In this document: positions 1 to 39,768 of the stretch, piece by piece
Position numbering within the stretch: the stretch's first letter is position 1
Layout of the letters: every line of letters starts with the position of its first letter
Virus record (IMG/VR): IMGVR_UViG_3300001765_000076
Location: 1-64,000 of that record
From: a virus
Lineage: Duplodnaviria > Caudoviricetes
DNA length: 64,000 nucleotides
Direction: 5' to 3' (one strand)
The notes under the pieces: model-generated
What the model saw: only the letters and a program-made list of their open reading frames with translations
Database searches by the model: none
What the model was told of the DNA's origin: nothing
Translations under genes and position numbers: made by a program

Positions 1-1
1 A

Positions 2-643
2 TTAGAAAATATTAAGTTAAATGATAATTTTTGGAAGTGGTTTGGAAATAGCAAAGTTGTTGATAAAGATGGAAACCCAATGATTTGTTATCATGGAACA
101 CCAAAAGGTGGGTTTATAGAATTTAAACCAAAAACAGGATATAAGGGCAAATCAAAACAACAAGTTGATTTAGGGTCACATTTTTCGATTGATAAAGAAT
201 ATGCCTCTGGATATGCTGGTGACAAAAAAACGTCAAAGGTTTACGAATCGTTTTTGAAAATCGAAAATCCTTTATATACTAATCAAATGTTTTATAGAGA
301 AGATAATGAAGAGTTGTTTATTAAATATTTAAATTTTATAACTAAAACATTTAAGTTAAATTTAGGTGGTGATTACTATTACAATAAAAACGGTGATAAA
401 TTAAATGAACCACAAAATATTATCCTTAACAGTTTTTTAATTGATAAAATACCATCAAATAAACTTTATAATAGTTTAATAGATTTTGGGTTTGATGGTG
501 TTTTTCACGAACCATATAACATGGAAGGTTTAACCCACTTTAAAAAACACCCATTAGCATATATAATTATAGAATCAAACCAAGTTAAGTCAATTGAAAA
601 TGATGGCACTTGGGATGTAAATGATAATAATATTTACTCATAA
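2..643 (+). CDS. ADP-ribosyltransferase-like protein (ART-PolyVal type), 5' partial
   Basis: Frame stays open to the window edge: LENIKLNDNFWKWFGNSKVVDKDGNPMICYHGT...GSHFSIDKEYASGYA...NQVKSIENDGTWD...NIY. The WFGNSKVVD-x-G-x-P-x3-YHGT start and the C-terminal N/DG-x-W/F-D-x4-IY motif are typical of phage polyvalent-protein ART domains. Confidence 0.7.
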   Translation, partial: LENIKLNDNFWKWFGNSKVVDKDGNPMICYHGTPKGGFIEFKPKTGYKGKSKQQVDLGSHFSIDKEYASGYAGDKKTSKVYESFLKIENPLYTNQMFYREDNEELFIKYLNFITKTFKLNLGGDYYYNKNGDKLNEPQNIILNSFLIDKIPSNKLYNSLIDFGFDGVFHEPYNMEGLTHFKKHPLAYIIIESNQVKSIENDGTWDVNDNNIYS

Positions 644-657
644 AATAATTAATAAAA

Positions 658-972
658 ATGGAATTAAATTGGAAAAAAATTAAATTTATAGCAAGACAAA
701 ATACTTGGTATGATGAAGGGACAGAAGCGATTTTAGACCAGCAAGGTGGTATTGAACATGATTATACTTCCGCATTCTTTCGTGGATTACATGAAGGTTT
801 TGATGATGGTGAATGTTGCTGTGTTTTTGAATTTGATTGGATTGATGAAAATGGAAATTCTATTAATTCAAATATTCCATATATGGAAAGTACTATTCAA
901 CACAAAAACTATATTATTGAGAATGCTGAAACTGGTGAAAAATATAATTGGTTAGAAAATAAAAAAATATAA
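658..972 (+). CDS. hypothetical protein
   Basis: 104-aa ORF with ATG and an A-rich leader. Confidence 0.7.
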   Translation: MELNWKKIKFIARQNTWYDEGTEAILDQQGGIEHDYTSAFFRGLHEGFDDGECCCVFEFDWIDENGNSINSNIPYMESTIQHKNYIIENAETGEKYNWLENKKI

Positions 973-1050
973 ATCCTTAAAGTGCGTTGGGAAAATTTTT
1001 TTTGTTTTTCACCACGAAACTCAAATTGAAACACTGAACCAAGGCATGGA

Positions 1051-1144
1051 GCATAACGTTTTGCAGATAGGCGATGGTTGCCTACGATAAATTTAATTAT
1101 TAACCGAGAAGTTTCTGGCAACTATTGCCTATGTGCTGTTAGGT
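1051..1144. repeat. attC-like site 1 (94 bp)
   Basis: GCATAAC(1051-1057)...GTTAGGT(1138-1144); inner arms GCAGATAGGCGATGGTTGCC / GGCAACTATTGCCTATGTGC are complementary. Confidence 0.8.
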
Positions 1145-1171
1145 GCAGTGCTTCTCACAAATTGAAACAAA

Positions 1172-1348
1172 ATGAACAAAATATTGATATGTGTTTTACT
1201 GCAAATCGTTCTTTTTATACCATTCTATTTGATTTGGAGGAATGATTGCAAAAAAATAGGTAAAGACAACTTAGCAGTCAGTTTACAAGAACGATTTTTG
1301 TACTGGCTCATATTTTGTCCAATTTGGTTGGTAGGTGTCTTGGATTAG
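1172..1348 (+). CDS. cassette A ORF, 58-aa hydrophobic (probably two-TM) peptide
   Basis: Translated by hand: MNKILICVLLQIVLFIPFYLIWRNDCKKIGKDNLAVSLQERFLYWLIFCPIWLVGVLD*; fills the space between attC1 and attC2. Confidence 0.65.
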   Translation: MNKILICVLLQIVLFIPFYLIWRNDCKKIGKDNLAVSLQERFLYWLIFCPIWLVGVLD

Positions 1349-1354
1349 CATTGC

Positions 1355-1489
1355 ACCTAACGTTTTAGCAGCTATGAAATTGAAGCGGTTTGCGGGAGAG
1401 TAAACTTTAGTACTTAGAAAATGGTAATGCGGGCTACAAGCCTGATAAATGAGATAAAGACAGCTTTGTTTCATAGGTGCATGTTAGGC
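1355..1489. repeat. attC-like site 2 (135 bp)
   Basis: ACCTAAC(1355-1361)...GTTAGGC(1483-1489); arms GCAGCTATGAAATTGAAGC / GCTTTGTTTCATAGGTGC. Confidence 0.8.
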
Positions 1490-1520
1490 GTAGTACTTTA
1501 ATTTTTAAATTCAAAATATA

Positions 1521-1691
1521 ATGACAACAATCGAAAAAAGAGTAATTGTCGAAAAGACAAAATGTGGAGTTTATTTTTATACACTCCAAATCAGAAAATG
1601 GATAATGCCGTTTTTTAGAACGAAATGGAAAACAATCACACCAGAATGTCAACCTTCGTATGAAGAAGCAATAAACTTAATCAAAGAATAA
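1521..1691 (+). CDS. cassette B ORF1, 56-aa hypothetical protein
   Basis: Translated by hand: MTTIEKRVIVEKTKCGVYFYTLQIRKWIMPFFRTKWKTITPECQPSYEEAINLIKE*. Confidence 0.6.
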   Translation: MTTIEKRVIVEKTKCGVYFYTLQIRKWIMPFFRTKWKTITPECQPSYEEAINLIKE

Positions 1692-1692
1692 T

Positions 1693-1902
1693 ATGGAAAA
1701 CTTACAACAGATAATGGCTTGCTGTGAACAATGGCCTAATTGTGAAGGACACATGGATATTTATGAGGAAATAATCGCAAAAGAAGCAATTGAAAGTTTA
1801 CTTGAAAAGGTTGAACCTATTTCAGAAGAAAAAACGTCAAAGAACGGAGAACCAACGTCCTTAATTAATGCTATTAAACGAGCAAATGGTGATATTTCTT
1901 AG
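1693..1902 (+). CDS. cassette B ORF2, 69-aa hypothetical protein
   Basis: ATG 1 nt after the ORF1 stop; its stop abuts the cassette-end repeat. Confidence 0.65.
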   Translation: MENLQQIMACCEQWPNCEGHMDIYEEIIAKEAIESLLEKVEPISEEKTSKNGEPTSLINAIKRANGDIS

Positions 1903-1908
1903 TATTAC

Positions 1909-2030
1909 GCCTAACGGCTGCGTGTATGGCACGTTGCTAATACAGAACTTAATTTGAAATACTAAAATTTAATAATATGAATAAAGATAATTTGAAACCA
2001 CGAAGCAATGTGCTATACACGTTGTTAGCA
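1909..2030. repeat. attC-like site 3 (122 bp)
   Basis: GCCTAAC(1909-1915)...GTTAGCA(2024-2030); arms CGTGTATGGCACGTTGCT / AGCAATGTGCTATACACG (16/18 complementary). Confidence 0.8.
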
Positions 2031-2189
2031 AATCGTTATTTTGGCGGTTTGAAACGATGGTTTATGCTAAGATATTATAAAGGTTGTTTAAGAGAAACAC
2101 TTGTAAGAACAATAAAAGGCGAACAAGGATTAGAGTTGGCTCGTAGATTTTTTAACTATAAAATTTACCAACTATCTAAGCCAAAATAA
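1977..2189 (+). CDS. cassette C ORF, 70-aa basic protein starting inside attC3
   Basis: ATG lies in the attC3 loop; stop is just before the cassette-end repeat TTTGCTAAC. Confidence 0.55.
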   Translation: MNKDNLKPRSNVLYTLLANRYFGGLKRWFMLRYYKGCLRETLVRTIKGEQGLELARRFFNYKIYQLSKPK

Positions 2190-2194
2190 TGTTT

Positions 2195-2220
2195 GCTAAC
2201 TATTATATATACACAACTAA
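2195..2220 (-). other. candidate attI-like primary recombination site
   Basis: GCTAAC core closing cassette C is followed by TATTATATATACACAACTA with no long hairpin (minus strand TAGTTGTGTATATATAATA-GTTAGC); 17 bp from the recombinase ATG. Confidence 0.4.
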
Positions 2221-2237
2221 TATTTAATTAATTGATT

Positions 2238-3044
2238 ATGAACATAAAAAGTAAGTCAACTCTCGAAAAGTTTGAAAAATCTTTGAGATTTAAAAACTAT
2301 TCTGATAGAACTATTGAAATGTATTTACATTATTCGGAAAAATTTTTAAATGAATTTGAAAAGGATATTTATCATATTTCACAAAAAGATGCGGTTAATT
2401 ATTTAATTAATAAAAAATATACATCAATATCTCAACAGAATCAAATAATAAATTCGATAAAGTTATTATATAAATATGTTGTTAGTTCTAAGATAGTTAT
2501 TTTAGATATAGAAAGGCCTCGAAAATAAAAAACATTACCAAGAGTTATTGATAAAGATTATCTCTTAGAAAAAATATCAAAGATTAATAATATCAAACAT
2601 AAAATTATAATTTCACTTGCATATTCAGTTGGTTTGAGAGTTTCGGAAGTAATAAACTTAAAAATAAAAGATATTGATTCTAAGCGGATGGTTATAAATA
2701 TAATTCAATCTAAAGGAAGAAAAGATAGGATTGTACCTTTAACTCAAAATATATTAGATTTACTAAGAATTTATTTTAAAGAATATAGACCAGTTGAATA
2801 TATGTTTAACGGTCAGTTTTCAAATCAATATAGTTCAACATCTTGTAATCAAATTATTAAGAAATATTTAGGTGAAAATTACCACTTTCACTTATTGCGA
2901 CATAGTTGTTTCACTAATCTAACAGACAACAACGTGGATATCAGAGTCATACAAAAGTTAGCAGGTCATAGTTCAAGTAAAACAACTGAAATATATTGCC
3001 AAGTTTCTAAAAACACACTTAGAAATTTACCACTTGCAATATAA
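2238..3044 (+). pseudogene. tyrosine recombinase/integrase (N-terminal SAM-like domain plus catalytic domain) with one in-frame TAA at 2526-2528
   Basis: ORFs 2232-2528 and 2634-3044 are in the same frame; read-through gives RPRK*KTLPRVI...SLAYSVGLRVSE...KGRKDR...HLLRHS...LAGH...TTEIY with all catalytic R-K-H-R-H-Y residues. Confidence 0.9.
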
Positions 3045-3058
3045 AAAATGTTAAATAG

Positions 3059-3090
3059 TTTGGTGGTTTAAAAGTTTTGTTTTATCTTTG
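3059..3090 (+). promoter_or_regulatory. Bacteroidetes primary-sigma-type promoter (-33 TTTG / -7 TATCTTTG)
   Basis: TTTGGTGGTTTAAAAGTTTTGTTTTATCTTTG; same 32-bp geometry as seven minus-strand copies. Confidence 0.7.
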
Positions 3091-3120
3091 TACTATCAAA
3101 TTAAAAAAAATAGATTTATC

Positions 3121-3348
3121 ATGGAAGAATTAGAAAATATATTAGATTGGTTGGTTGAATTAGATATTCAACATTATAAGACAGAGACGTTTAGTGATTA
3201 CACACCCTCTGGAAATTCACATTTTTATTTGAAACGATCACAAGAAAGATTTACATCTAAAGAAATGATTGAGGTTTTTCACAATAAAGCGAGTGATGAT
3301 TTGATGAAGAAATGGCATTATGCTGTTGCTGATACAATGCGTAAGTAA
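3121..3348 (+). CDS. hypothetical protein
   Basis: ATG 3121 downstream of the promoter. Confidence 0.65.
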   Translation: MEELENILDWLVELDIQHYKTETFSDYTPSGNSHFYLKRSQERFTSKEMIEVFHNKASDDLMKKWHYAVADTMRK

Positions 3349-3400
3349 TAAATAATTATTTTAAAAATAAATTAACAATTAATAATAATAAAAAAACAAA

Positions 3401-3817
3401 ATGAAAACAATTAAAATTTTATTGGTAGCAATGTTATTGCTAAGTTCTATTTCTAGTTTTTCAGTGTCTATCTATACTGAATCTAAGGCTGTTGCTGTAG
3501 CTAATGGTTACACGATAGCAACTGAAATGTATGGTGATTTAGTCAAATCAGACTATGTTTATAATTGGAGACAATTTTATGCAGATACAGAGTACCTCAT
3601 ATTTGCATGTTCAGATGATGCAGATGTCACTGATGTGGATATTTATATAGAGAATCCTAATGGTTCAATATTCTTACAGGATAATGACTCACACAGATCT
3701 GCGGTTGTATCTTTTGAATTGTATGATCCCATCCAATTAAAGATTGTTGTCTTTAACCATGCGACGCTAACCCCAAATTACGCATCCAGAATTCAATACT
3801 TTGTGGCATTTAAATAA
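3401..3817 (+). CDS. secreted protein with signal peptide and beta-sandwich (PPC-like) domain
   Basis: MKTIKILLVAMLLLSS signal; DVDIYIENPNG...DND motif. Confidence 0.6.
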   Translation: MKTIKILLVAMLLLSSISSFSVSIYTESKAVAVANGYTIATEMYGDLVKSDYVYNWRQFYADTEYLIFACSDDADVTDVDIYIENPNGSIFLQDNDSHRSAVVSFELYDPIQLKIVVFNHATLTPNYASRIQYFVAFK

Positions 3818-3824
3818 AATAAAT

Positions 3825-3983
3825 ATGGTAGAATTTAAATTAACCTATGATGAGTTATTTACATTACTTAAAGAAGCTTATAGAAATGGTTATTCGACTT
3901 ATGAGCCAGTTGAGGCTGGTTTAGAACCCTACGATTCAGATAGTTATAGCAGGTACGTAATTTCAAAAATCAAAACAAAATGA
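3825..3983 (+). CDS. hypothetical protein
   Basis: small ORF in an operon-like chain (ATGA overlap downstream). Confidence 0.55.
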   Translation: MVEFKLTYDELFTLLKEAYRNGYSTYEPVEAGLEPYDSDSYSRYVISKIKTK

Positions 3984-4186
3984 AATTAGATAATTTAGTT
4001 GGAAAAGATTTTCGTTATATTTCTAAATATGATGGAAAAGAAAGTAATTGGATTGGGGTAGTTGATAGAATTACTATTACAACAGTTATAAAGGACTATA
4101 AGCTAGGCGAATACGTTCCAGAAATACATATTATATCTAAAAACGGACAGAGTTATTTATTACACGAATTAATATTTTTAAAATAA
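3980..4186 (+). CDS. hypothetical protein
   Basis: ATGA overlap with the previous ORF. Confidence 0.6.
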   Translation: MKLDNLVGKDFRYISKYDGKESNWIGVVDRITITTVIKDYKLGEYVPEIHIISKNGQSYLLHELIFLK

Positions 4187-4193
4187 TACAATA

Positions 4194-4532
4194 ATGGAAA
4201 AGAAGAATGGATTACCGAATGATGTTATTTTGTTCCTTAATGAAATTGACTCTATCGTTACTGACCCATATGAAAGCGGTTATATTGGTTCGTTTAATGT
4301 TAAATCATTGGATATATTACGAAATAAATATGGTTTGTGCGAAACTGAAAACGATCCTATATCAGGATATATTTCAATTCCAGATATTAGAAACAAATTA
4401 TCACCTATCAAAAATCTATTAGCTTTACTTAAAATGGCTAATTTTAAACATTCAGATGAAAGAATTGATAGACTGATAAACGAAGCCATTGAACAATCAG
4501 GAAAAAGTGTTGAATATTTATCACAAAAATAA
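4194..4532 (+). CDS. hypothetical protein; C-terminus resembles a histidine-kinase DHp helix pair without the His
   Basis: PDIRNKLSPIKNLLALL resembles HD(I/L)RNPLxxIxxxxxLL. Confidence 0.6.
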   Translation: MEKKNGLPNDVILFLNEIDSIVTDPYESGYIGSFNVKSLDILRNKYGLCETENDPISGYISIPDIRNKLSPIKNLLALLKMANFKHSDERIDRLINEAIEQSGKSVEYLSQK

Positions 4533-4533
4533 A

Positions 4534-4956
4534 ATGAAAAATAGTTTCAAGAAAAAAAGAATTTCAGTTAGATTAAATAAATTGAAAACATGGTTTGGTG
4601 AGGATAAACCAGTTATTACAGATATGCAACGTAAATCATTATCAGTTTTTAGAAAAATGGTGGTAAGTCCAGAATCTACGTTATTAACAGACCCACTAAC
4701 TAATTGTTGTTATATTGAATTCAAACATTATTTTATTAAATTGGATTCAAAGTCTATTTTGATTAAAAAAACTACCTTTAGTAATTATTGTGAATTTGAT
4801 TATCGTATTGGTGAGAAAGCAATATCATTTTTCTTCAGGCATGTTTCTAAACGGAGGATGGCTATGGAGACGATGTATGATGGTAATACAATAGCTAATC
4901 TAGAAAAAATTAATTTTGGACTGAGCAGTTCAGTAACTAAAACAATTAAGAAATGA
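4534..4956 (+). CDS. hypothetical protein
   Basis: ORF; ATG 4534 preferred over 4489. Confidence 0.65.
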   Translation: MKNSFKKKRISVRLNKLKTWFGEDKPVITDMQRKSLSVFRKMVVSPESTLLTDPLTNCCYIEFKHYFIKLDSKSILIKKTTFSNYCEFDYRIGEKAISFFFRHVSKRRMAMETMYDGNTIANLEKINFGLSSSVTKTIKK

Positions 4957-5141
4957 AATTTGAATTAGATGAAAACCAACTTGTTAGATTAAACGAATGG
5001 CAAACAAAAATTAAAGAAATTTTTGGTGAATATGGTCTGTATGATTACGTATTTACACCATATGACATGGGAGTCGGAGTAAAGGTGGTTAGTCATCTAA
5101 CTAAGACTGAATTAGATTTAAGTAATGTTGAAAATTGGTAA
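4953..5141 (+). CDS. hypothetical protein
   Basis: ATGA overlap. Confidence 0.6.
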   Translation: MKFELDENQLVRLNEWQTKIKEIFGEYGLYDYVFTPYDMGVGVKVVSHLTKTELDLSNVENW

Positions 5142-5151
5142 AACATTGATT

Positions 5152-5760
5152 ATGAAGATTATAACTAAAAGAAGTCAAAAAGATTATTATGATTTTTTGA
5201 TTGGAGTTTATGGTGAAGATCCATTAATTGTATTGGATAGGACTAAAAATGATAAATTACCTTACTCAATTAGTAATGATGTAGTTGTTAGATTTTATAT
5301 TGGTGGTTATTTGGTTGAAGGTTATAAAATAAATGATAGTTATTATTATGGTGAAAACTTACATGAGTTTGGTGATGATAAAAGATATATCTCACCATAT
5401 AGTTATAGAAACCAAAATATAGAAGTGAAAGATTTGATTTATTTAAAAGATTCAAAATCTCGCTCGCCTTACGTACTAATTAAACCAGTAGTAGATGTTG
5501 AATTGATCAATGAGAAAGAAAATTGCAGTATATTATTGGCTTTTAATGGTGCTGGCGGAGTTAACTATTTAAAATATCCAAATTTATCATCGTTCAATAT
5601 ACAAAGTCTACTATCACCAGAGGTTGTTTACAAGATGATTTCAGATTGGATTTCAAGTCAGATAACCAAAAGCGAAAATAAAGTAGATAGTAGAAGTAAT
5701 ATAGAGAAGATCGAGTCGAAAGGCTTTGATAAGAAAACTAGTTTTAGAAAATTGCCATGA
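5152..5760 (+). CDS. hypothetical protein
   Basis: ORF of about 200 aa. Confidence 0.7.
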   Translation: MKIITKRSQKDYYDFLIGVYGEDPLIVLDRTKNDKLPYSISNDVVVRFYIGGYLVEGYKINDSYYYGENLHEFGDDKRYISPYSYRNQNIEVKDLIYLKDSKSRSPYVLIKPVVDVELINEKENCSILLAFNGAGGVNYLKYPNLSSFNIQSLLSPEVVYKMISDWISSQITKSENKVDSRSNIEKIESKGFDKKTSFRKLP

Positions 5761-16656: not shown

Positions 16657-17964
16657 ATGCCTAATGAAAAAATAACCACAGAAGAATTTATTGAGAGAGC
16701 TAGATTGGTTCATGGAGATAGGTATGATTATAGTAAGGTGGTGTTTGTAAATATATCATCTAAGGTTATAATAATATGTTCGGTTCATGGTGAATTTGAA
16801 CAGTCACCCGATAAACATTTAAGAAAAAGAGGTTGTCCTAATTGTGCTCACAATAAAAAGAAAACACAGAAAGAGGTCGTTTCTTTATTTGTAGAGAAAC
16901 ATGGTAATTTATACGATTATTCAAAAGTCGTTTATGTTGGTATTGAAAAATATGTGACTATAATTTGCAAAAAGCATGGAGATGTTTCCATAATACCATC
17001 TAACCATATAGCTGGTTCTATTTGTCCGAAATGTGCCTTGGAAAAAAGAACTGAAAATAAATTTCACACACCTGAACATGTATTGTCTAAATTTAAAGAA
17101 TTACATGGGGATAGATATGATTATTCTAAGGTTATTTATATTAATAATAAAACTAAAGTTGAAGTTATTTGTAAGGAACATGGTTCATTTATGGTAACAC
17201 CAGTTTCCCATTTGCAATCTAAAGGGTGTCCGAGATGTGTGAAACATAAAAATTTTACAGTTGAAATTGTTAAAGAAAGTTTTATTAAAAGGCATGGTCT
17301 AAAATATGATTATTCGTTATTTACCGAATATAAAAGAAATTCAGATAAAATAAAAATAATATGCCCAGTTCATGGCGTGTTTATAACTACTGCATCTTCA
17401 CATGAGCAGGGAAGTGGGTGTTCAAAATGTGCTGGTACATATGTTTATTCTCAGGAAGAAATGATTGTACATTTCAATGAGAAGCATGATAATTTTTATG
17501 ACCATTCACTAATAAACTATGTGAATATGAAACAAAAAATAAAAATACTATGTCCAATACATGGTACTTTTGAGCAATCACCATCAAACCATTTATTTCA
17601 AAATGGTTGTCCTAAATGTAGAATGTCTACTGGCGAAAAGCAAATTGAAAAATTATTGAAGGTTGAATGTATTGATTTCGTAATGGAAAAGACTTTTGAA
17701 GATTGTAGAGATAAAGCTATTTTACCTTTTGATTTTTATTTACCAAATAATAATATATGTATCGAATATAACGGAATACAACACTATAAACCCATAAAAT
17801 TTTTCGGTGGCGAACCATCACTTATAACACAACAAAGACATGATGAGATAAAATTAAATTATTGTAAAGATAATGATATTAATTTCCTAGTAATAAAATA
17901 TACTGAAAATGTTGAAGAGAAATTAATTGAATTTGGCATTATAAATAAAAAGGAGAGCGTTTAA
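16657..17964 (+). CDS. free-standing homing-endonuclease-like protein: about six DUF723-like zinc-finger repeats plus a C-terminal PD-(D/E)xK domain
   Basis: repeats of HG-x2-YDYS...IIC-x2-HG-x-F...H...GCPxC; LPFDFYLP...CIEYNGIQHY. Confidence 0.8.
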   Translation: MPNEKITTEEFIERARLVHGDRYDYSKVVFVNISSKVIIICSVHGEFEQSPDKHLRKRGCPNCAHNKKKTQKEVVSLFVEKHGNLYDYSKVVYVGIEKYVTIICKKHGDVSIIPSNHIAGSICPKCALEKRTENKFHTPEHVLSKFKELHGDRYDYSKVIYINNKTKVEVICKEHGSFMVTPVSHLQSKGCPRCVKHKNFTVEIVKESFIKRHGLKYDYSLFTEYKRNSDKIKIICPVHGVFITTASSHEQGSGCSKCAGTYVYSQEEMIVHFNEKHDNFYDHSLINYVNMKQKIKILCPIHGTFEQSPSNHLFQNGCPKCRMSTGEKQIEKLLKVECIDFVMEKTFEDCRDKAILPFDFYLPNNNICIEYNGIQHYKPIKFFGGEPSLITQQRHDEIKLNYCKDNDINFLVIKYTENVEEKLIEFGIINKKESV

Positions 17965-29796: not shown

Positions 29797-30306
29797 TCAA
29801 CCAACATTATTTTGATATTCAGCTAACTTCGTATCCCATTCACTTGAAAATTGTTCTTTTAACACCACCAATTTACCTAGTTTATCAGCAGCATCTTTTG
29901 TTAGCAATACGGAATCAGCCCAAATATATAGTCCACCACTTTGATCATTGTATCTAAATTGGAATTTTAAATCATTTAAACCAGTGATAGCTGCACTAAA
30001 AACTACATCGTTATCTTCTGGGTAAACTATCAATGAATTATCATCGGTTTTAATTGCGCCAACGAACTTAGTCATGTTGTTTTTTAATTCAACAAAATAT
30101 GGGTCGTTTTGAGCTATCTTAACTTCTTTTTTTTGAGGTTCTTGCGTTTCAACCGTTTCAAACTCTTCGTTTAATTTGGTTTTTAATGTTACATCCCTAG
30201 TCGTTGTACGCATATCACTAAACATCTGCCTAAAAACCGTATCTTCATCTAATTGTTTTCGTTGATGTTTTAACCCTGTTATTTCATCTATGATGTATCT
30301 AGCCAT
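29797..30306 (-). CDS. hypothetical late protein
   Basis: 169-aa ORF. Confidence 0.65.
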   Translation of the reverse strand: MARYIIDEITGLKHQRKQLDEDTVFRQMFSDMRTTTRDVTLKTKLNEEFETVETQEPQKKEVKIAQNDPYFVELKNNMTKFVGAIKTDDNSLIVYPEDNDVVFSAAITGLNDLKFQFRYNDQSGGLYIWADSVLLTKDAADKLGKLVVLKEQFSSEWDTKLAEYQNNVG

Positions 30307-30357: not shown

Positions 30358-31047
30358 TCAATTATTTTCCAAAATAGCACATCTTACCTTTTTTATGCTA
30401 CTTTCTATGATGTTTGAAACGGACATTGATGTTATTTTGTATTTCTTTGATATTTCACCGATATTCAACTCTTTTTTATCGCAAATACCATAATAGTGTT
30501 TGATTATCTCAGATTCCTTTTCGGTTAGTTTGTTTAAATGTAAAATTACATCGTTAAATAAATTTTCAGTTACTTCTTGCTCTGTCTCTATTTCTTTATC
30601 TTCGTAGTAACTATGCATTTGTGCATTCCCTAACGACATTTCACCAATTAAAAACTTTTCAACGTCCTCGTTTTCATCTAATATCAATTCAGTGGTAATT
30701 TCTTCCCTTTTGCTTTTTTCTTTTATTAGTAATATCATTGATTGTCTGATCCACCAATAAGCAAATGTTGAAAAATTAAAACCTTTTTTACCTTCGAACC
30801 TATCGGCTGCCGTAATTAGCCATTTATTACCCTCTGCCACTAGTTCACTGAATTCAATACCCTTATCCTTGTATTTGTGCGCTATACTCAGTACGAGCTT
30901 TAAATTGGCTGAAACCAACTTATTTCTAGCAATTATATCACCTAGTTTAATTTGTTTGCTTAGCTTCTTCTCATCTCTCAATGTTAGCTGTTTGATTTTA
31001 TCAATATCTAAACCGTAGTACGGTAAATTATTTGTATATTTTTTCAT
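30358..31047 (-). CDS. sigma70-family RNA polymerase sigma factor
   Basis: ARNKLVSANLKLVLSIAHKY...ELVAEGN...ADRFE...GFNFSTFAYWWIRQSM (region 2); LTEKESEIIKHYYGI...IGEIS (region 4). Confidence 0.9.
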   Translation of the reverse strand: MKKYTNNLPYYGLDIDKIKQLTLRDEKKLSKQIKLGDIIARNKLVSANLKLVLSIAHKYKDKGIEFSELVAEGNKWLITAADRFEGKKGFNFSTFAYWWIRQSMILLIKEKSKREEITTELILDENEDVEKFLIGEMSLGNAQMHSYYEDKEIETEQEVTENLFNDVILHLNKLTEKESEIIKHYYGICDKKELNIGEISKKYKITSMSVSNIIESSIKKVRCAILENN

Positions 31048-35900: not shown

Positions 35901-38855
35901 TTAAGTAAACATATTTTCAACCAATGACCAATTTTCACTAGCATCTCTATTACATGTACCATCATCACCCCTAAATCTAACCTCTCTATCGAAGCCATTG
36001 AAATTATTATCTCCGTTATCTAGCCATTGCCAATTGCCATCTACACCGAAATCTTTATTAATTATGTCAATTAAGCCAGCGTAACCAGTTGAGCCCGTAT
36101 CAAAGTAATTTATATTTTTGTATCTTAATATACTTTTTCCCGTAAATGTCTGTGTTGTTCCTGTGGCGTATCTTTCACACGTTTTTTCGGCTAATATCCA
36201 TTTTGGTTCAATTGTATTTATTTTAACAAAGTCAAATATTGCCGTGCTTGGTATTACTTGTTCTAAATATGGTAGTAACAGCGATTTTATTATATTATAA
36301 ATATCATCTTCGGTTGCACCTAAAACACTACCCTCTAACATCGCATTGTTCTCATCCTCCATTAATTCATTAACACCATCTTCCATTAGTAACGATATTG
36401 CAAAGTCGTTCAATATTTTACTCGTATCTATACCGATAACAAAGTTTTTAAGATTTAACGTTAGCTTATCTTCTCTTTTTTTGATTGTCCATGTATTTGT
36501 TGGTTGGTCATAATCTAAATCCCACGTTTCCCCGTATTTAAATGTATATGCAACACCGTTAAACGACCAATTTATTGAGTTTTTATAATCGTTACTAAAA
36601 TGAAATATAAATTTTCTACTTCTAATTAAGCTCGTGGTTGTTTTTGGGGTTGTCTGATAAATTTTAAACAAGATGCTAGATGGGCTATCTGCTGTTAATG
36701 TATAACCCATAAAATATTCTTTATCAGCTTTAAATGGTTTGCCCTTAAATATTATTTTATCGTTGTTCACTGTTTTGCCACTAGATATTGTGAAACCAGT
36801 GGTATGACCAGTTATATCAATGGTTGGATAGTAATCTTGATTATCAATATCATTTTTAAATAGGTTTTTGAATTGGTCAACGTAGTTGAAACCACCATCG
36901 TACACTCCGCTACCTACGTGTGGGTTATTACCAGTTGTTATTTCATTTACATAGGTACCGCCAGTGTAATCGGTATGATAACCCCCAGTTTCTCTGTACC
37001 AACTTCCTTTTTGTTGAAAATAAAATGAGTTTGAATTGATCATCGGTCTTGGATAGCCATAAGTATTTCCAGATATCAAAAATACTTGACCATCATCGAT
37101 ACATTTACCACTAATACCATCGGTGTCTAAAATATAATAATTTTCACTTCCAGATGGTGATTTTACAAATGTGTCTAAATTTAAACCAGTATATAATATA
37201 TTTCTAGTCTCATCGGTAGTTGTCTCTATTTCAACGTATCTAACATCCGAGTTTAAATCGGCTATTTTTTGTAAAGATGTATCAACTAAAAAATTATCTA
37301 CTTTCTGAGTGTATTCCCTTATTTGATAATAGTTTTCATCAACACCCAGTAAATTCATAACCTTTCTAATGGCCTTTTTAGTCCCTTTACTCCTCCATAT
37401 ATAGGGTGAATTTATTATCATTCTTCTATTCACCTCACTATCAACCTCTTTTGTTGATAGCGAACCTAGTGCTCCTGGAAACATGCCAGCTACCGTACTA
37501 CCACTTAAAGGAAATGTTTTAGTTATTGAGTTTACATCCCACCCTAACATATTTAATTTTCCACTCAGATATTGTTCTGGTAAATTATTTTCTTTATTAT
37601 ATGTTATGTTGTTAGAAAATGAAATCCCATCAATATACTTTTTTACTTGATCAAACTCTCTACCATATAGTCTAAGTACTTTCTGAATTTTAGTACCCCC
37701 AATTATGTATTCATCTAATAAATCACCATCCGTAACTCTCTCATAGGTGGTGTCCATGTTTTTGATTGAGTCGTGGGCTAACATCCTATATAGATTGTCC
37801 GAATATACTTCATCTATGTAATTAGATGCATCTACCAACTCTTGCACAAATAGAACGTAGTCCATTGATGAGATGTCTAGGTTATAAGTATCTGGCGTTT
37901 CCCATATAAACTGTCTATACTCAAATGTAGTACCAAATTCAGTTTCTTTTGGTATTTTTATCAACGACCTATATTTTGGCGATGTTTTTCTATTCAATAA
38001 TACTCTTTGTAAATCATCTAAACTGTCAAAAAATTCATTTATTTTAAAGTTATTTGGTCTTATGTGTAGTGATGTTGACAGTGTAATTGGATTACTTAGA
38101 TTGAAAGTCAGTGTTTGATTAATTTCGTTCGATGTAAGGCCAGTAACTGTCGCTAGTTGAATATCATTGGAAACTACAACAAAGTCGTTGTATGAGCTTG
38201 CAATTACCCTTAAATCATAACCTAGATTGGTTCTTGTATTGGCGTAACTATTTAAATCAATTCCGAATGTATTGGTTATATCACTAATTGGAATTGTTAA
38301 TGTATTCCCTTGTTGAATAATGGTAATATCTTCGTTTTGCGCTAGCTCTCCGTTTTCCATTAATTCATTATCTCCGTTCTCCATTAGTAATTCATCGCTT
38401 ATGATTGTATCATAGGATATGTATAACCCAGCTGGAAATCTATTTATTATGTCTTCAATACCACCTTTTATCAATGTATTACATGAACCAAAATAAGAAA
38501 ATTTAGTTAAATCGTCGTATGTCTTTTCTAAATCAATATATGTTTTAGGTATTTCTAGTTGTTTTGATGTAATTGGTTGTGTTGTTGAGCTTTCTTGACT
38601 TTCACTGATTAAAATATCTTCTAACGTAAATATATCACTTGTTTCACTGCTGACTATTGTTTTTTTGTCGGTTGGTGTTGTATTAACTATAAAAGTAAAC
38701 CCGCCTTCACTTCTAATAACTAAATTCCCATTTACATCGTTATATGGCTGTGAATAGCTCAGTAAGTCCGTCTCAAAAATTTTACTATTTTGAGCTACGA
38801 CTGGATTGCTTTTTTGAACGTAATTACTTGTTGATTTTATATATTTTTTCGCCAT
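35901..38855 (-). CDS. large tail/baseplate structural protein
   Basis: 984 aa in the baseplate operon; gp7-like IWRSKGTKKAIRKVMNLLG segment. Confidence 0.6.
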   Translation of the reverse strand: MAKKYIKSTSNYVQKSNPVVAQNSKIFETDLLSYSQPYNDVNGNLVIRSEGGFTFIVNTTPTDKKTIVSSETSDIFTLEDILISESQESSTTQPITSKQLEIPKTYIDLEKTYDDLTKFSYFGSCNTLIKGGIEDIINRFPAGLYISYDTIISDELLMENGDNELMENGELAQNEDITIIQQGNTLTIPISDITNTFGIDLNSYANTRTNLGYDLRVIASSYNDFVVVSNDIQLATVTGLTSNEINQTLTFNLSNPITLSTSLHIRPNNFKINEFFDSLDDLQRVLLNRKTSPKYRSLIKIPKETEFGTTFEYRQFIWETPDTYNLDISSMDYVLFVQELVDASNYIDEVYSDNLYRMLAHDSIKNMDTTYERVTDGDLLDEYIIGGTKIQKVLRLYGREFDQVKKYIDGISFSNNITYNKENNLPEQYLSGKLNMLGWDVNSITKTFPLSGSTVAGMFPGALGSLSTKEVDSEVNRRMIINSPYIWRSKGTKKAIRKVMNLLGVDENYYQIREYTQKVDNFLVDTSLQKIADLNSDVRYVEIETTTDETRNILYTGLNLDTFVKSPSGSENYYILDTDGISGKCIDDGQVFLISGNTYGYPRPMINSNSFYFQQKGSWYRETGGYHTDYTGGTYVNEITTGNNPHVGSGVYDGGFNYVDQFKNLFKNDIDNQDYYPTIDITGHTTGFTISSGKTVNNDKIIFKGKPFKADKEYFMGYTLTADSPSSILFKIYQTTPKTTTSLIRSRKFIFHFSNDYKNSINWSFNGVAYTFKYGETWDLDYDQPTNTWTIKKREDKLTLNLKNFVIGIDTSKILNDFAISLLMEDGVNELMEDENNAMLEGSVLGATEDDIYNIIKSLLLPYLEQVIPSTAIFDFVKINTIEPKWILAEKTCERYATGTTQTFTGKSILRYKNINYFDTGSTGYAGLIDIINKDFGVDGNWQWLDNGDNNFNGFDREVRFRGDDGTCNRDASENWSLVENMFT

Positions 38856-38877
38856 TTTACTATGTAAATTTTATTTT

Positions 38878-39768
38878 TTAAACGCTCCCCACGATTGTAT
38901 CATGATCCTGTGTGAAATCAATACTCGTTTGTGTTTCCTTAACGTCGTATATAGCCGTTCCAGTAGCATCTTCTTTTATTAGATAATATTGTTTTTGATC
39001 GTATATTTGATTGTTTTTATCGTATGTCGTGATGAGGCCTTTATCTAAGTTTCTTATTTGATTCCCATTGATAGTTGTGTATAGCGATTCAACATCGTTT
39101 TCAGTCATTTCGATTTCAATCATTGTTGGATTAAAGAAAGTGTTTGAAAGTATTATCCTTGAACCTGGATTACCAATAAATGGTACTGAGTTCGCTTTTA
39201 TCGTACTAGCAGATGATGGTGTAACAGTCAAAAACATTAAATCTGAACTATCATTAAATCTATATCTAATTGATTTCTGACTTGAACTAGTTACATTTTG
39301 ATTTACTGGCTCACATCTATTATTTGACGTTATAATTTTAAAGAAGTTATTTATTTTTACGCCAGATTGGTCATAATATTCCAATCTGTAACCAGTTAAA
39401 CTATCATTTTCAAATGTTTGATTTGGAATTGCTGATAGTTTTAAAACGACACCCTTTACATCTGGATAGGCTGAAAGTACACCAATGTCTAATATAGTGG
39501 TTTCAATTTCTTTTGGTCTGATCATTATATTATAAATACCACTTCTATTGAAAGTGTCTAATGGTAATTTCAAATTATATATACCATCTAGGTTTGTAGC
39601 CGTTCCGTTATTTACTTGCTGTCCCCTTACTAAATATTTTGTAGCATCAACAGATGTAAAACCAGTAGAAACAGCACTTCTAGTCTCTTGATACGATAAA
39701 AATACATCCGCATCTGATGTTGGATTGAAATTTGCTTGTTTAACTATACCGTAAGAACCTGAAGCTAT
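38878..39768 (-). CDS. structural-module protein, probably starting at ATA 39768
   Basis: frame open 65 codons upstream of the tracked start: (I/M)ASGSYGIVKQANFNPTSDAD... Confidence 0.6.
   Translation of the reverse strand: MASGSYGIVKQANFNPTSDADVFLSYQETRSAVSTGFTSVDATKYLVRGQQVNNGTATNLDGIYNLKLPLDTFNRSGIYNIMIRPKEIETTILDIGVLSAYPDVKGVVLKLSAIPNQTFENDSLTGYRLEYYDQSGVKINNFFKIITSNNRCEPVNQNVTSSSQKSIRYRFNDSSDLMFLTVTPSSASTIKANSVPFIGNPGSRIILSNTFFNPTMIEIEMTENDVESLYTTINGNQIRNLDKGLITTYDKNNQIYDQKQYYLIKEDATGTAIYDVKETQTSIDFTQDHDTIVGSV

Follow-up and report, generated by a model that had tools for sequence, protein, structure and literature searches.

Does the genome of a large bacteriophage contain an integron of its own and, if so, is it an integron of the classical kind? 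This question is raised by positions 1–3044 of the DNA analyzed here (the window), which comprises the first 64 kb (64,000 nucleotides, nt) of a 78,121-base IMG/VR virus record (IMGVR_UViG_3300001765_000076), estimated by CheckV to represent 22% of a genome. The carrier is a large Bacteroidota phage; phage-type exonuclease, SbcC-like, DnaB-like, UvsX-like, HNH and baseplate proteins are encoded in the window, and coding is on the + strand throughout from base 1 to ~6.6 kb. The initial annotation of this DNA had read three palindromes, the small open reading frames (ORFs) between them and an adjoining tyrosine recombinase as a phage-borne array of the integron type. Our analyses bear this out in kind, in that an array and a linked recombinase are present; however, the enzyme is not of the IntI type, the polarity of the array is reversed, and the carriage of attC-type sites by phages has already been published and is hence not new by itself. 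The locus is very probably a site-specific cassette system served by a family of short Xer/XerA-like recombinases.

The three palindromes, for which lengths of 94, 135 and 122 bp had been claimed, are present at the places reported; each of them is imperfect and runs from TAACG to TGTTA, with spans of 88, 129 and 116 nt when measured from TAAC to GTTA. Site 1, an attC-like hairpin (1054–1141, + strand, 88 nt), is predicted to fold into a 5-bp first helix (TAACG/TGTTA), a 4-nt bulge confined to the 5′ arm, 3 bp, a 1x1 mismatch and a 16-bp stem with G:T pairs, and its two strands differ in stability (−16.0 vs. −7.1 kcal/mol) and in the number of G:T pairs (3 vs. 0). Near-identical or compensated copies of this site are held by three of the compared loci, which are designated here by L-numbers (L018, L020, and L021). 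Site 2 (1358–1486, + strand, 129 nt), likewise attC-like, is predicted to begin with a first helix of 6 bp; a bulge of 4 nt on the 5′ arm is followed by 3 bp and a 1x1 mismatch, and a stem of 8 bp then leads into a large, branched loop (−13.4 vs. −5.4 kcal/mol for its two strands). The attC-like site 3 (1912–2027, + strand, 116 nt) has a first helix of 5 bp, which a 5′ bulge of 3 nt separates from a stem of 19 bp with 4 G:T pairs; the next ORF has its ATG (1977) in the loop of this hairpin, at a distance of 65 nt from TAAC, and homologues of the site in L005, L006, L002 (LR756500.1), L009, and L017 adjoin unrelated flanks. Folding of each site as single-stranded DNA, a check that the initial annotation had proposed, found the + strand to fold better than shuffled sequences (z = −4.3, −1.9, and −2.4 for sites 1, 2, and 3, compared with −1.6, −0.35, and −1.1 for the − strand). 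The lengths and cores of the hairpins agree with those of attC sites (~57–141 nt, RYYYAAC…GTTRRRY); the consensus is matched exactly by the inverse cores of sites 2 and 3 and by the cores of sites 1 and 2, while the others are 1 position off.

The architecture of these sites is rare within the phage DNA and recurs outside it. When the whole 78-kb contig was scanned for TAACG, a bulge of 2–5 nt restricted to the 5′ side, a stem with 11 of 12 positions paired and then TGTTA, sites 1 and 3 alone were found, where 0.03 matches were expected; site 2 lies just outside this filter because of its 6-bp first helix. Two other searches were set aside, viz. a first narrow genome pattern search, which matched an unrelated place (L003), and a loose AAC…GTT stem scan, which was too noisy in AT-rich DNA. 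A comparison set of 25 hairpins was drawn from the window and from nine viral and two bacterial loci; every hairpin in it starts with TAACG, and in 22 of the 25 the first interruption after the 5-bp helix is a bulge of 2–5 nt on the 5′ arm only, often followed by 3–4 bp and a 1x1 mismatch. One strand is the stabler in 24 of the 25 (mean −4.1 kcal/mol), with G:T pairs numbering 66 vs. 6. Extrahelical bases on the arm opposite AAC were not found, and the sites thus do not show the canonical unpaired features of attC sites, although a variable loop is present. The site lengths in this family range from 48 to 129 nt.

That these hairpins delimit cassettes is indicated by the relationship between successive sites, which is the strongest feature of the locus and had gone unnoticed in the initial annotation. 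Counted from GTTA onwards, 15 nt of each site show 93% complementarity to the 15 nt up to and including the following TAAC, and not to the other end of their own hairpin. A repeat search recovers these end pairs at 1138–1152 with 1347–1361 and at 1483–1497 with 1901–1915; for the third, 2024–2032 (9 nt from GTTA) pairs with 2192–2200, and a longer match needs one extra base to be skipped in the first end. Such end-pairing is the pattern expected from joining by exchange at one fixed core point and is a hallmark of integron cassettes. When this was made into a rule (GTTA and the following 10 nt against 10 nt followed by TAAC), 2–8 cassettes were found per related phage locus, compared with ~0.1 in shuffled sequences, and 57 oriented cassettes were obtained in the viral loci by end-pairing. 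Position 11 after GTTA is always a G facing a T, which makes a G:T pair on the coding strand and a C.A on the other, and the T of this pair is invariant, including in the last cassette before the recombinase.

Three complete cassette units, all on the + strand, are thus demarcated in the window. Unit C (1057–1360, inverted ends 1138–1152 and 1347–1361) comprises hairpin 1 and a 58-aa ORF (1172–1348) that resembles a membrane peptide. Unit B (1361–1914, likewise delimited by its inverted ends) comprises hairpin 2 and ORFs of 56 aa (1521–1691) and 69 aa (1693–1902). Unit A (1915–2199, ends 2024–2032 and 2192–2200) comprises hairpin 3 and a 70-aa ORF (1977–2189), which begins within the hairpin loop; this unit adjoins the attI-like site described below, and L009 has its end pair around an unrelated ORF. 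The alternation of palindromes and tiny ORFs, followed by a tyrosine recombinase frame at 2238–3044, is therefore as it had first been described. None of the four cassette ORFs matches a family or function in Pfam, NCBIfam or PHROGs and, because of this, the roles in host takeover or anti-defence earlier suggested for them are conjecture. Unit C is also present in two other viral contigs (L020 and L021) and is the sole cassette common to independent loci; in its copies the upstream hairpin is co-conserved (local scores 58–81 of 120) whereas the downstream hairpin is not (8–16).

Strand-specific folding, a TAAC at the base of the hairpin and a mismatch or bulge close to this base are also compatible with single-strand transposition of the IS200/IS605 or REP/RAYT type, in which the units would be moved by an HUH nuclease. 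In HUH systems, too, imperfect hairpins serve as recognition elements and cleavage occurs at a fixed tetranucleotide of one strand, and the ends of IS608-type elements resemble the features seen here. However, the recurrent gene beside these arrays is a tyrosine recombinase, the head-to-tail arrangement, the RYYYAAC/GTTRRRY cores and the end-pairing are features of integrons, and no HUH or Y1 transposase gene was seen in the loci examined, no dedicated search for one having been run. We regard this explanation as highly improbable, and a tyrosine recombinase-served cassette system remains our preferred reading.

An insertion platform of the attI kind is indicated directly in front of the recombinase gene. 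A TAAC at 2197–2200, 41 nt before this gene, opens a putative attI-like site (2197–2237, + strand) that continues with an AT-rich core (2201–2210) and the recombinase leader. The same TAAC and AT-rich decamer are found ~40 nt (36–48 nt) before the recombinase ATG in 12 aligned loci. Among the relatives of the recombinase, which were found in 17 viral contigs and two very close assemblies (L123 and L125), the latter two encode intact 268-aa recombinases that are 87–88% identical to that of the window. The DNA of the window, L123 and L125 can be aligned from TAAC to ATG and is unrelated directly upstream of TAAC, where the cassettes of L123 (three units) and L125 (several, including one with a Dam methyltransferase) are wholly unlike those of the window. 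The comparison of cassette content between relatives, which the initial annotation had called for, hence revealed different content at the same site, an outcome in favour of the integron reading. An inverted partner of the DNA that borders the attI-like TAAC occurs 150–980 nt upstream in 8 of 13 phage-type loci, and in the window too when an indel of one base is permitted; a cassette therefore lies directly at this site. Judged by these sequence comparisons, the TAAC site before the recombinase appears to behave as expected of an attI site, and the crossover probably takes place within its TAAC.

Further evidence for the gain or loss of whole units at TAAC is provided by the metagenomes, for which the Logan contigs of four runs were compared with positions 1–5000 of the window; runs X1–X3 are from the microbial-mat samples in which this DNA has its source. 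In run X1, a contig at depth 6.65 (the main form being at 12.9) joins position 1053 to 2197 and skips 1143 nt; the two sides of the joint have four letters (TAAC) in common, and 79 letters lie on the shorter side. Exactly three hairpin-plus-gene units are missing from this variant, which places the end of the distal cassette directly at the attI-like site. Because it differs from the main form by single-nucleotide polymorphisms at 976–1022 and 2245, the variant is a sister lineage rather than an excision caught in progress; an array-less form with a TAAC junction thus exists, as turnover of cassettes would lead one to expect. Another contig, from run X3, matches the window to 1058 and then enters a different hairpin. 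In run X2, no contig covers about 2505–3382 and none bridges this gap. A second joint (1700 to 2400) was disregarded, its shorter side being 21 letters.

The polarity of the system follows from four independent observations that agree with each other, viz. the attI-like site is at that end of the array which adjoins the recombinase, hairpins and genes are lost as whole units in the 1053-to-2197 joint, the sole cassette shared by the window, L020 and L021 keeps its upstream hairpin, and it is the + strand that folds. All of them place the point of exchange in the TAAC that lies 5′ of each hairpin (+ strand) and indicate that the unit consists of a hairpin and the gene downstream of it. The opposite assignment, in which the hairpin would belong to the preceding gene, was rejected on the basis of the shared-cassette comparison, the position of the attI-like site and the same joint. 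In published attC sites the bottom strand carries more G:T pairs (1.24 vs. 0.39) and is favoured by 2.1 kcal/mol (Nivina et al., 2016; PMC5027507); since the bias in G:T pairs and stability is the same here, the recombined strand in the window would be the + (coding) strand. Of the 57 viral cassettes, 49 have their longest open frame on the G:T-rich strand, compared with only 1 of 19 cassettes from bacteria. The strand bias characteristic of integrons is therefore present in the phages, while the placement of genes on the other strand is not. When the − strand is read, the recombinase gene points away, and the attI-like site and then the cassettes follow, which is the classical plan with its genes reversed.

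This assignment also explains the start codon found in the loop of hairpin 3, since start codon and gene body are then parts of the same unit. A loop ATG opens the downstream ORF in 8 of 22 phage hairpins checked (hairpin 3 and seven others), and in 7 of these 8 it lies 62–65 nt from TAAC. A one-base difference in length between site 3 and its counterparts in L005 and L006 shifts the frame of the 3′ arm, and therefore what is kept is an open frame and not a peptide. We also observed that hairpins of ~115–129 nt with a near-fixed position of the ATG occur in the window (1977), L023, L005, L009, L013, L017, and L123. A separate observation concerns a 19-nt leader (GCTTCTCACAAATT, one variable base, AAAC) that follows hairpins of the site 1 type (window 1142–1171, L001 3055–3073, L018, L020, and L021); it is conserved in four phage contigs, where it precedes at least 3 unrelated ORFs, and a partial copy (CAAATTGAAACA) is present at 1022–1033 of the window. 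Core exchange alone does not account for the conservation of this leader.

Loop start codons and a leader common to different genes might equally be expected of regulatory modules, i.e., promoter, terminator or RNA-processing stem-loops whose genes are shuffled by homologous recombination between the repeats. The promoter early stem-loops (PeSLs) of T4-type phages are such promoter-terminator modules, which are found beside novel ORFs in hyperplastic regions and through which modules are shuffled (PMC2839356; PMC4122927), and in the present arrays the folding strand is the sense strand and hence also that of the mRNA. However, the terminators whose discovery would have undermined the initial annotation were not found (0 intrinsic terminator sites in 800–3300), an Rfam scan of the same region at E up to 1 gave no match, and matches to sigma-70-type promoters (20, vs. 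13.6 in shuffled sequences, sd 4.0) were not clearly above expectation. The idea that the hairpin loops carry promoters was dropped, as the Bacteroidota −7 motif was not enriched (3 vs. 5 vs. 1.9). The defining arrangement of PeSLs, a terminator and an early promoter before each ORF, was accordingly not found by the terminator, sigma-70-type and −7 scans. Homologous exchange is moreover unlikely because the junctions share 4 nt (TAAC) only, and regulatory modules would leave the private 14–15-nt inverted ends with their fixed G:T position unexplained, as well as the occurrence of the same sites beside a recombinase gene in bacteria and phages alike. We therefore consider the regulatory explanation to be very unlikely in comparison with site-specific exchange of cassettes.

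The recombinase of the window is a Xer/XerA-like tyrosine recombinase pseudogene of 268 residues (2238–3044, + strand; PF00589, 1.8e-34; PF13495, 1e-11). Its reading frame is interrupted by one in-frame TAA at 2526–2528 (codon 97), which represents a change of E97 from GAA to TAA; a glutamate occupies this position in 10 of 11 aligned relatives. The catalytic residues R134, K159, H218, R221, H244, and Y253 are intact and are invariant across the alignment with these 11 relatives. The stop codon is covered without difference by contigs from X1 (2014) and X3 (2023), which are two samples of one study, and its identity in both indicates a recently inactivated pseudogene rather than an assembly error. 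The array is in consequence probably frozen, except where an enzyme is available in trans.

Several lines of sequence evidence place this enzyme outside the integron integrases. Its best model is NF040815 (XerA-type), to which it matches with 170 bits, below the cut-off of 220, as do the intact relatives of the phage clade (166–178 bits). Its match to the IntI model TIGR02249 amounts to 133 bits against a cut-off of 265 and is broken into two stretches, the first of which ends at model position 181 of 315, such that the split flanks the position of the IntI-specific insertion. This insertion is absent from all members of a 12-sequence alignment. Among known structures, the XerC-like 4a8e (119 bits) and XerA 5hxy were aligned from end to end, whereas IntI4 (2a3v) was aligned only to chain residue 177. 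The recombinase of the window is thus not an IntI-type enzyme, and no IntI-type protein was found in the 78-kb contig. By the features used to define integrons, the boundary signature is present and an attI site is indicated by comparative evidence, while the recombinase falls outside the IntI clade.

Related enzymes occur in bacteria together with arrays of the same sites. In a survey with one genome per species, 285 relatives were found, the best 80 of which are nearly all labelled Bacteroidota. The bacterial homologues show 40–47% identity and have arrays of the same type of site directly downstream of the recombinase gene; their cassette genes are co-directional with this gene and a short site follows each of them. 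One such locus (L059) contains three cassettes, one of which was read from its sequence, with no family scan, as a GNAT-type acetyltransferase. The antisense strand of the bacterial sites has the same architecture as the + strand of the phage sites. In a maximum-likelihood tree, the phage-type and bacterial layouts lie on opposite sides of one branch, so that a single change suffices to account for them, and the phage-type clade (16 rows) has a support of 98/91. Three array-linked bacterial proteins matched NF040815 with 215–236 bits, two of the three being above the cut-off (228 and 235 vs. 220); all three fall below the IntI model, and the insertion is absent from them as it is from the phage proteins. 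Relatives at 44–46% identity were also seen outside the Bacteroidota labels, viz. L086, L088, and L117 (Acinetobacter), and L046, from a bin labelled Bifidobacterium. L117, a complete Acinetobacter chromosome, nests among Cytophagia in the tree, which suggests transfer, and the label of L046 may be a binning error.

The linkage and the tree bear upon a further alternative, in which the phage array is a passive piece of a host array picked up by illegitimate or homologous recombination, the neighbouring gene is an unrelated phage integrase, and the TAAC motif is its attP site or promoter. Clusters of attC sites lacking integron integrases (CALINs) have been described in phages and an origin of this kind has been suggested for them (Qi et al., 2023; PMC9892861); the recombinase gene of the window is dead, several array-bearing phages are without one, and arm-less short integrases do exist in phages, relatives at 37% identity being annotated as integrase in Cellulophaga and Polaribacter phages. 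The operational definition of a CALIN also applies to the window, which has three sites and a terminal half-site with no IntI nearby. However, such a label conceals the recombinase that is linked to the array. This linkage is recurrent, the motif is bordered by cassette ends in 9 of 13 phage-type loci, and similarity among close relatives stops exactly at the TAAC beside the gene. Traces of the linkage remain even where the gene has been lost: L009 retains a 31-residue C-terminal remnant of the recombinase ~700 nt past its last hairpin, and L002 has kept the array terminus and the AT-rich leader with the recombinase gene absent. The single nonsense codon of the window is an early stage of the same decay. 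In addition, the layout of the arrays tracks the recombinase clade, and the phage arrays are not simple copies of host arrays because the orientation of their genes is opposite. A passive origin is for these reasons very unlikely, and the linked recombinase family is retained as the probable agent of cassette exchange. In L002, the array terminus is followed (4591–5157) by a short ORF and then, in place of the recombinase, by a gene read from its translation, with no family scan, as ClpP-like.

The earlier survey of phage genomes permits a direct comparison. Among 10,705 phage genomes, 3 complete integrons, 1 cassette-less integrase and 17 attC clusters were reported; the CALINs occurred in virulent as well as temperate phages, including a phage of Flavobacteriia, and IntI1 recombined 5 of 6 tested phage attC sites (Qi et al., 2023; PMC9892861). 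The sole tested phage site that was not recombined by IntI1 is P12002L_attC1 from a Polaribacter phage (PMC9892861), and the sequence published for it is that of a short hairpin belonging to the family described here. This failure of IntI1 fits a family that is served by another enzyme. The strict cassette rule gave no match in P12002L (L127); its intergenic regions do show hairpins of the family with variant cores. Some of these cores (CAAC and GGTAAC/GTTACC) escape the strict rule, and the family is therefore wider than our counts suggest. On the − strand of P12002L, family hairpins were seen at about 29990–30045, 30850–30900, 38040–38100, and 38830–38890, flanking methyltransferase genes. 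The phage sites described in 2023 were reported with no recombinase, attI-like site or reversed genes; the present locus differs in that a platform is present, though with its gene broken. Our literature search found no paper on a short recombinase with its own attI-like site and reversed cassettes, which is not proof that none exists.

The system shares many features with classical integrons, especially sedentary chromosomal ones whose attC families are homogeneous, such as the Vibrio cholerae repeats, viz. head-to-tail cassettes, imperfect hairpins with AAC/GTT cores, sites whose ends pair with the beginning of the site in the following cassette, a primary site by the 5′ end of a divergent tyrosine recombinase gene (in the − strand reading), and one strand which carries G:T pairs and folds better (PMC5027507). 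As in sedentary chromosomal integrons, near-identical sites surround unrelated genes and cassette content varies between close relatives. It differs from classical integrons in that the recombinase has no IntI insertion and scores below the IntI cut-off, the end-pairing covers 14–15 nt and always has a G:T at position 11, the array is carried by a phage, and the genes lie on the recombined strand, some of them starting inside their own site. A promoter in the platform could not drive these cassette genes, because they are reversed. The sites have a bulge of 2–5 nt in the AAC arm and a 1x1 mismatch, whereas classical attC sites have extrahelical bases in the opposite arm and a two-sided spacer. 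The recombinase itself is like the simple Xer/XerA recombinases (4a8e and 5hxy; NF040815, 'site-specific tyrosine recombinase/integron integrase') in its combination of PF13495 and PF00589, its length of ~268 aa and its full RKHRHY set. Unlike those enzymes, the genes considered here adjoin cassette arrays and do not serve chromosome dimer resolution, and no dif-like site was seen. With PeSLs, which among phage elements come closest to it in effect though not in mechanism, the locus shares a position in a plastic part of a large phage genome, novel ORFs of small size, a repeated stem-loop module, and content that varies between close relatives; PeSLs recombine between repeats with no dedicated recombinase, whereas the present arrays have 4-nt junctions, private inverted ends and a linked recombinase gene.

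A number of observations weigh against the proposed system. The recombinase family lacks the IntI-specific insertion, which classical work has held to be essential for integron recombination, and has no known biochemical activity, and the local copy is broken. Nearly identical hairpins are found between flanks that are unrelated on both sides, and therefore either homogeneous families of sites or exchange at both ends are needed. The evidence that pairs each hairpin with its downstream gene comes from one cassette family and one variant contig, and this X1 variant, being derived from Logan contigs and not from raw reads, shows presence and absence between lineages. Moreover, arrays occur with no intact gene: the complete 39-kb Flavobacterium phage hattifnatt9-1 contains at least 8 cassettes and no recombinase, while a complete 362-kb jumbo phage and the 462-kb record LR756500.1 have a recombinase fragment only, the array-bearing large-phage records with fragments only being one complete jumbo phage and two others. 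In such phages an enzyme from the host or from a co-infecting phage may therefore do the work. With regard to the insertion, it has been reported that it is not fully conserved in an integron-like subgroup (Smyshlyaev et al., 2021; PMC8138268).

The site anatomy, the end-pairing, the attI-like site, the turnover of cassettes, the TAAC-junction variant and the clade-specific layouts are observed; that the recombinase catalyses the exchange, acts on a folded single strand and cleaves at an exact position is what we infer from them. The positions 1–3044 of the window would then represent a platform resembling that of integrons in the genome of a large Bacteroidota phage, with a short Xer/XerA-like tyrosine recombinase at its centre and not a classical IntI. 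In − strand polarity, the cassettes would follow the attI-like site, each of them closed by an attC-like hairpin, and cutting would take place, by analogy with attC bottom strands, within the TAAC on the 5′ arm of the folded + strand. The mobile unit would be a hairpin and its downstream gene, and the genes would lie on the recombined strand; their direction is that in which the phage genes around them are transcribed. Most likely, captures made earlier are preserved in an array that became frozen only recently and could be moved only with a related enzyme in trans.

The remaining features of the locus lie at its distal end and beyond the array. The distal cassette (1–1056, + strand) is cut by the start of the contig at window base 1, and its inverted partner is not in the contig; its end is an extended inverse core at 1046–1057 that fits the family rule (A, T, six bases, TAAC). 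The contig opens inside an ORF (2–643, + strand) that encodes part of an ART-PolyVal domain (Pfam PF18760, 3.6e-16), the ADP-ribosyltransferase domain of polyvalent proteins, and this ORF is assigned to the distal cassette because of the end-pairing rule, the other end of the cassette being off the contig. It is followed by a 104-aa ORF (658–972, + strand), also in the distal cassette and identified from its sequence, for which Pfam, NCBIfam and PHROGs gave no function. A motif (AGTGCGTTGGGA) with a T-rich run is present at 978–1000 of the window and at 4750–4775 of L125, ~70–80 nt ahead of the cassette-end TAAC; it follows the 104-aa ORF in the window and the Dam methyltransferase gene in L125, and the variant contig of run X3 departs from the window exactly upstream of 979. 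This motif could be a relic half-site or a 3′ module. Far from the array, a 435-aa HNH/homing-endonuclease-like ORF (16657–17964, + strand; phrog_559, 1.3e-107) has large − strand ORFs on either side and may be a mobile insertion.

The significance of this locus lies in what it suggests about the enzymes that can serve integrons. The IntI-specific domain, which grips extrahelical bases of attC, has been held to be needed for integron recombination, and tools such as IntegronFinder define integrons by this domain; arrays of the present type are consequently filed at present as orphan attC clusters or missed. If the family is active, either single-strand cassette recombination has evolved or persists without the IntI domain, or its sites are read differently. 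To this the window contributes a decayed example with a dated nonsense mutation, a TAAC-junction variant without three units, and close relatives with an intact enzyme. We lean, though not strongly, towards the view that a second kind of integron is in use among Bacteroidota and their phages, in which a short Xer-like recombinase without the IntI domain captures hairpin-bounded cassettes and shuffles them at an attI-like site of its own, and whose platform has been turned round in the phages. If this is correct, both large and small Bacteroidota phages would have a site-specific route for gaining and losing small accessory genes, part of the ORFan-rich plastic regions of their genomes would be explained, and these phages would hold a private, self-expressing pool of swappable small genes.

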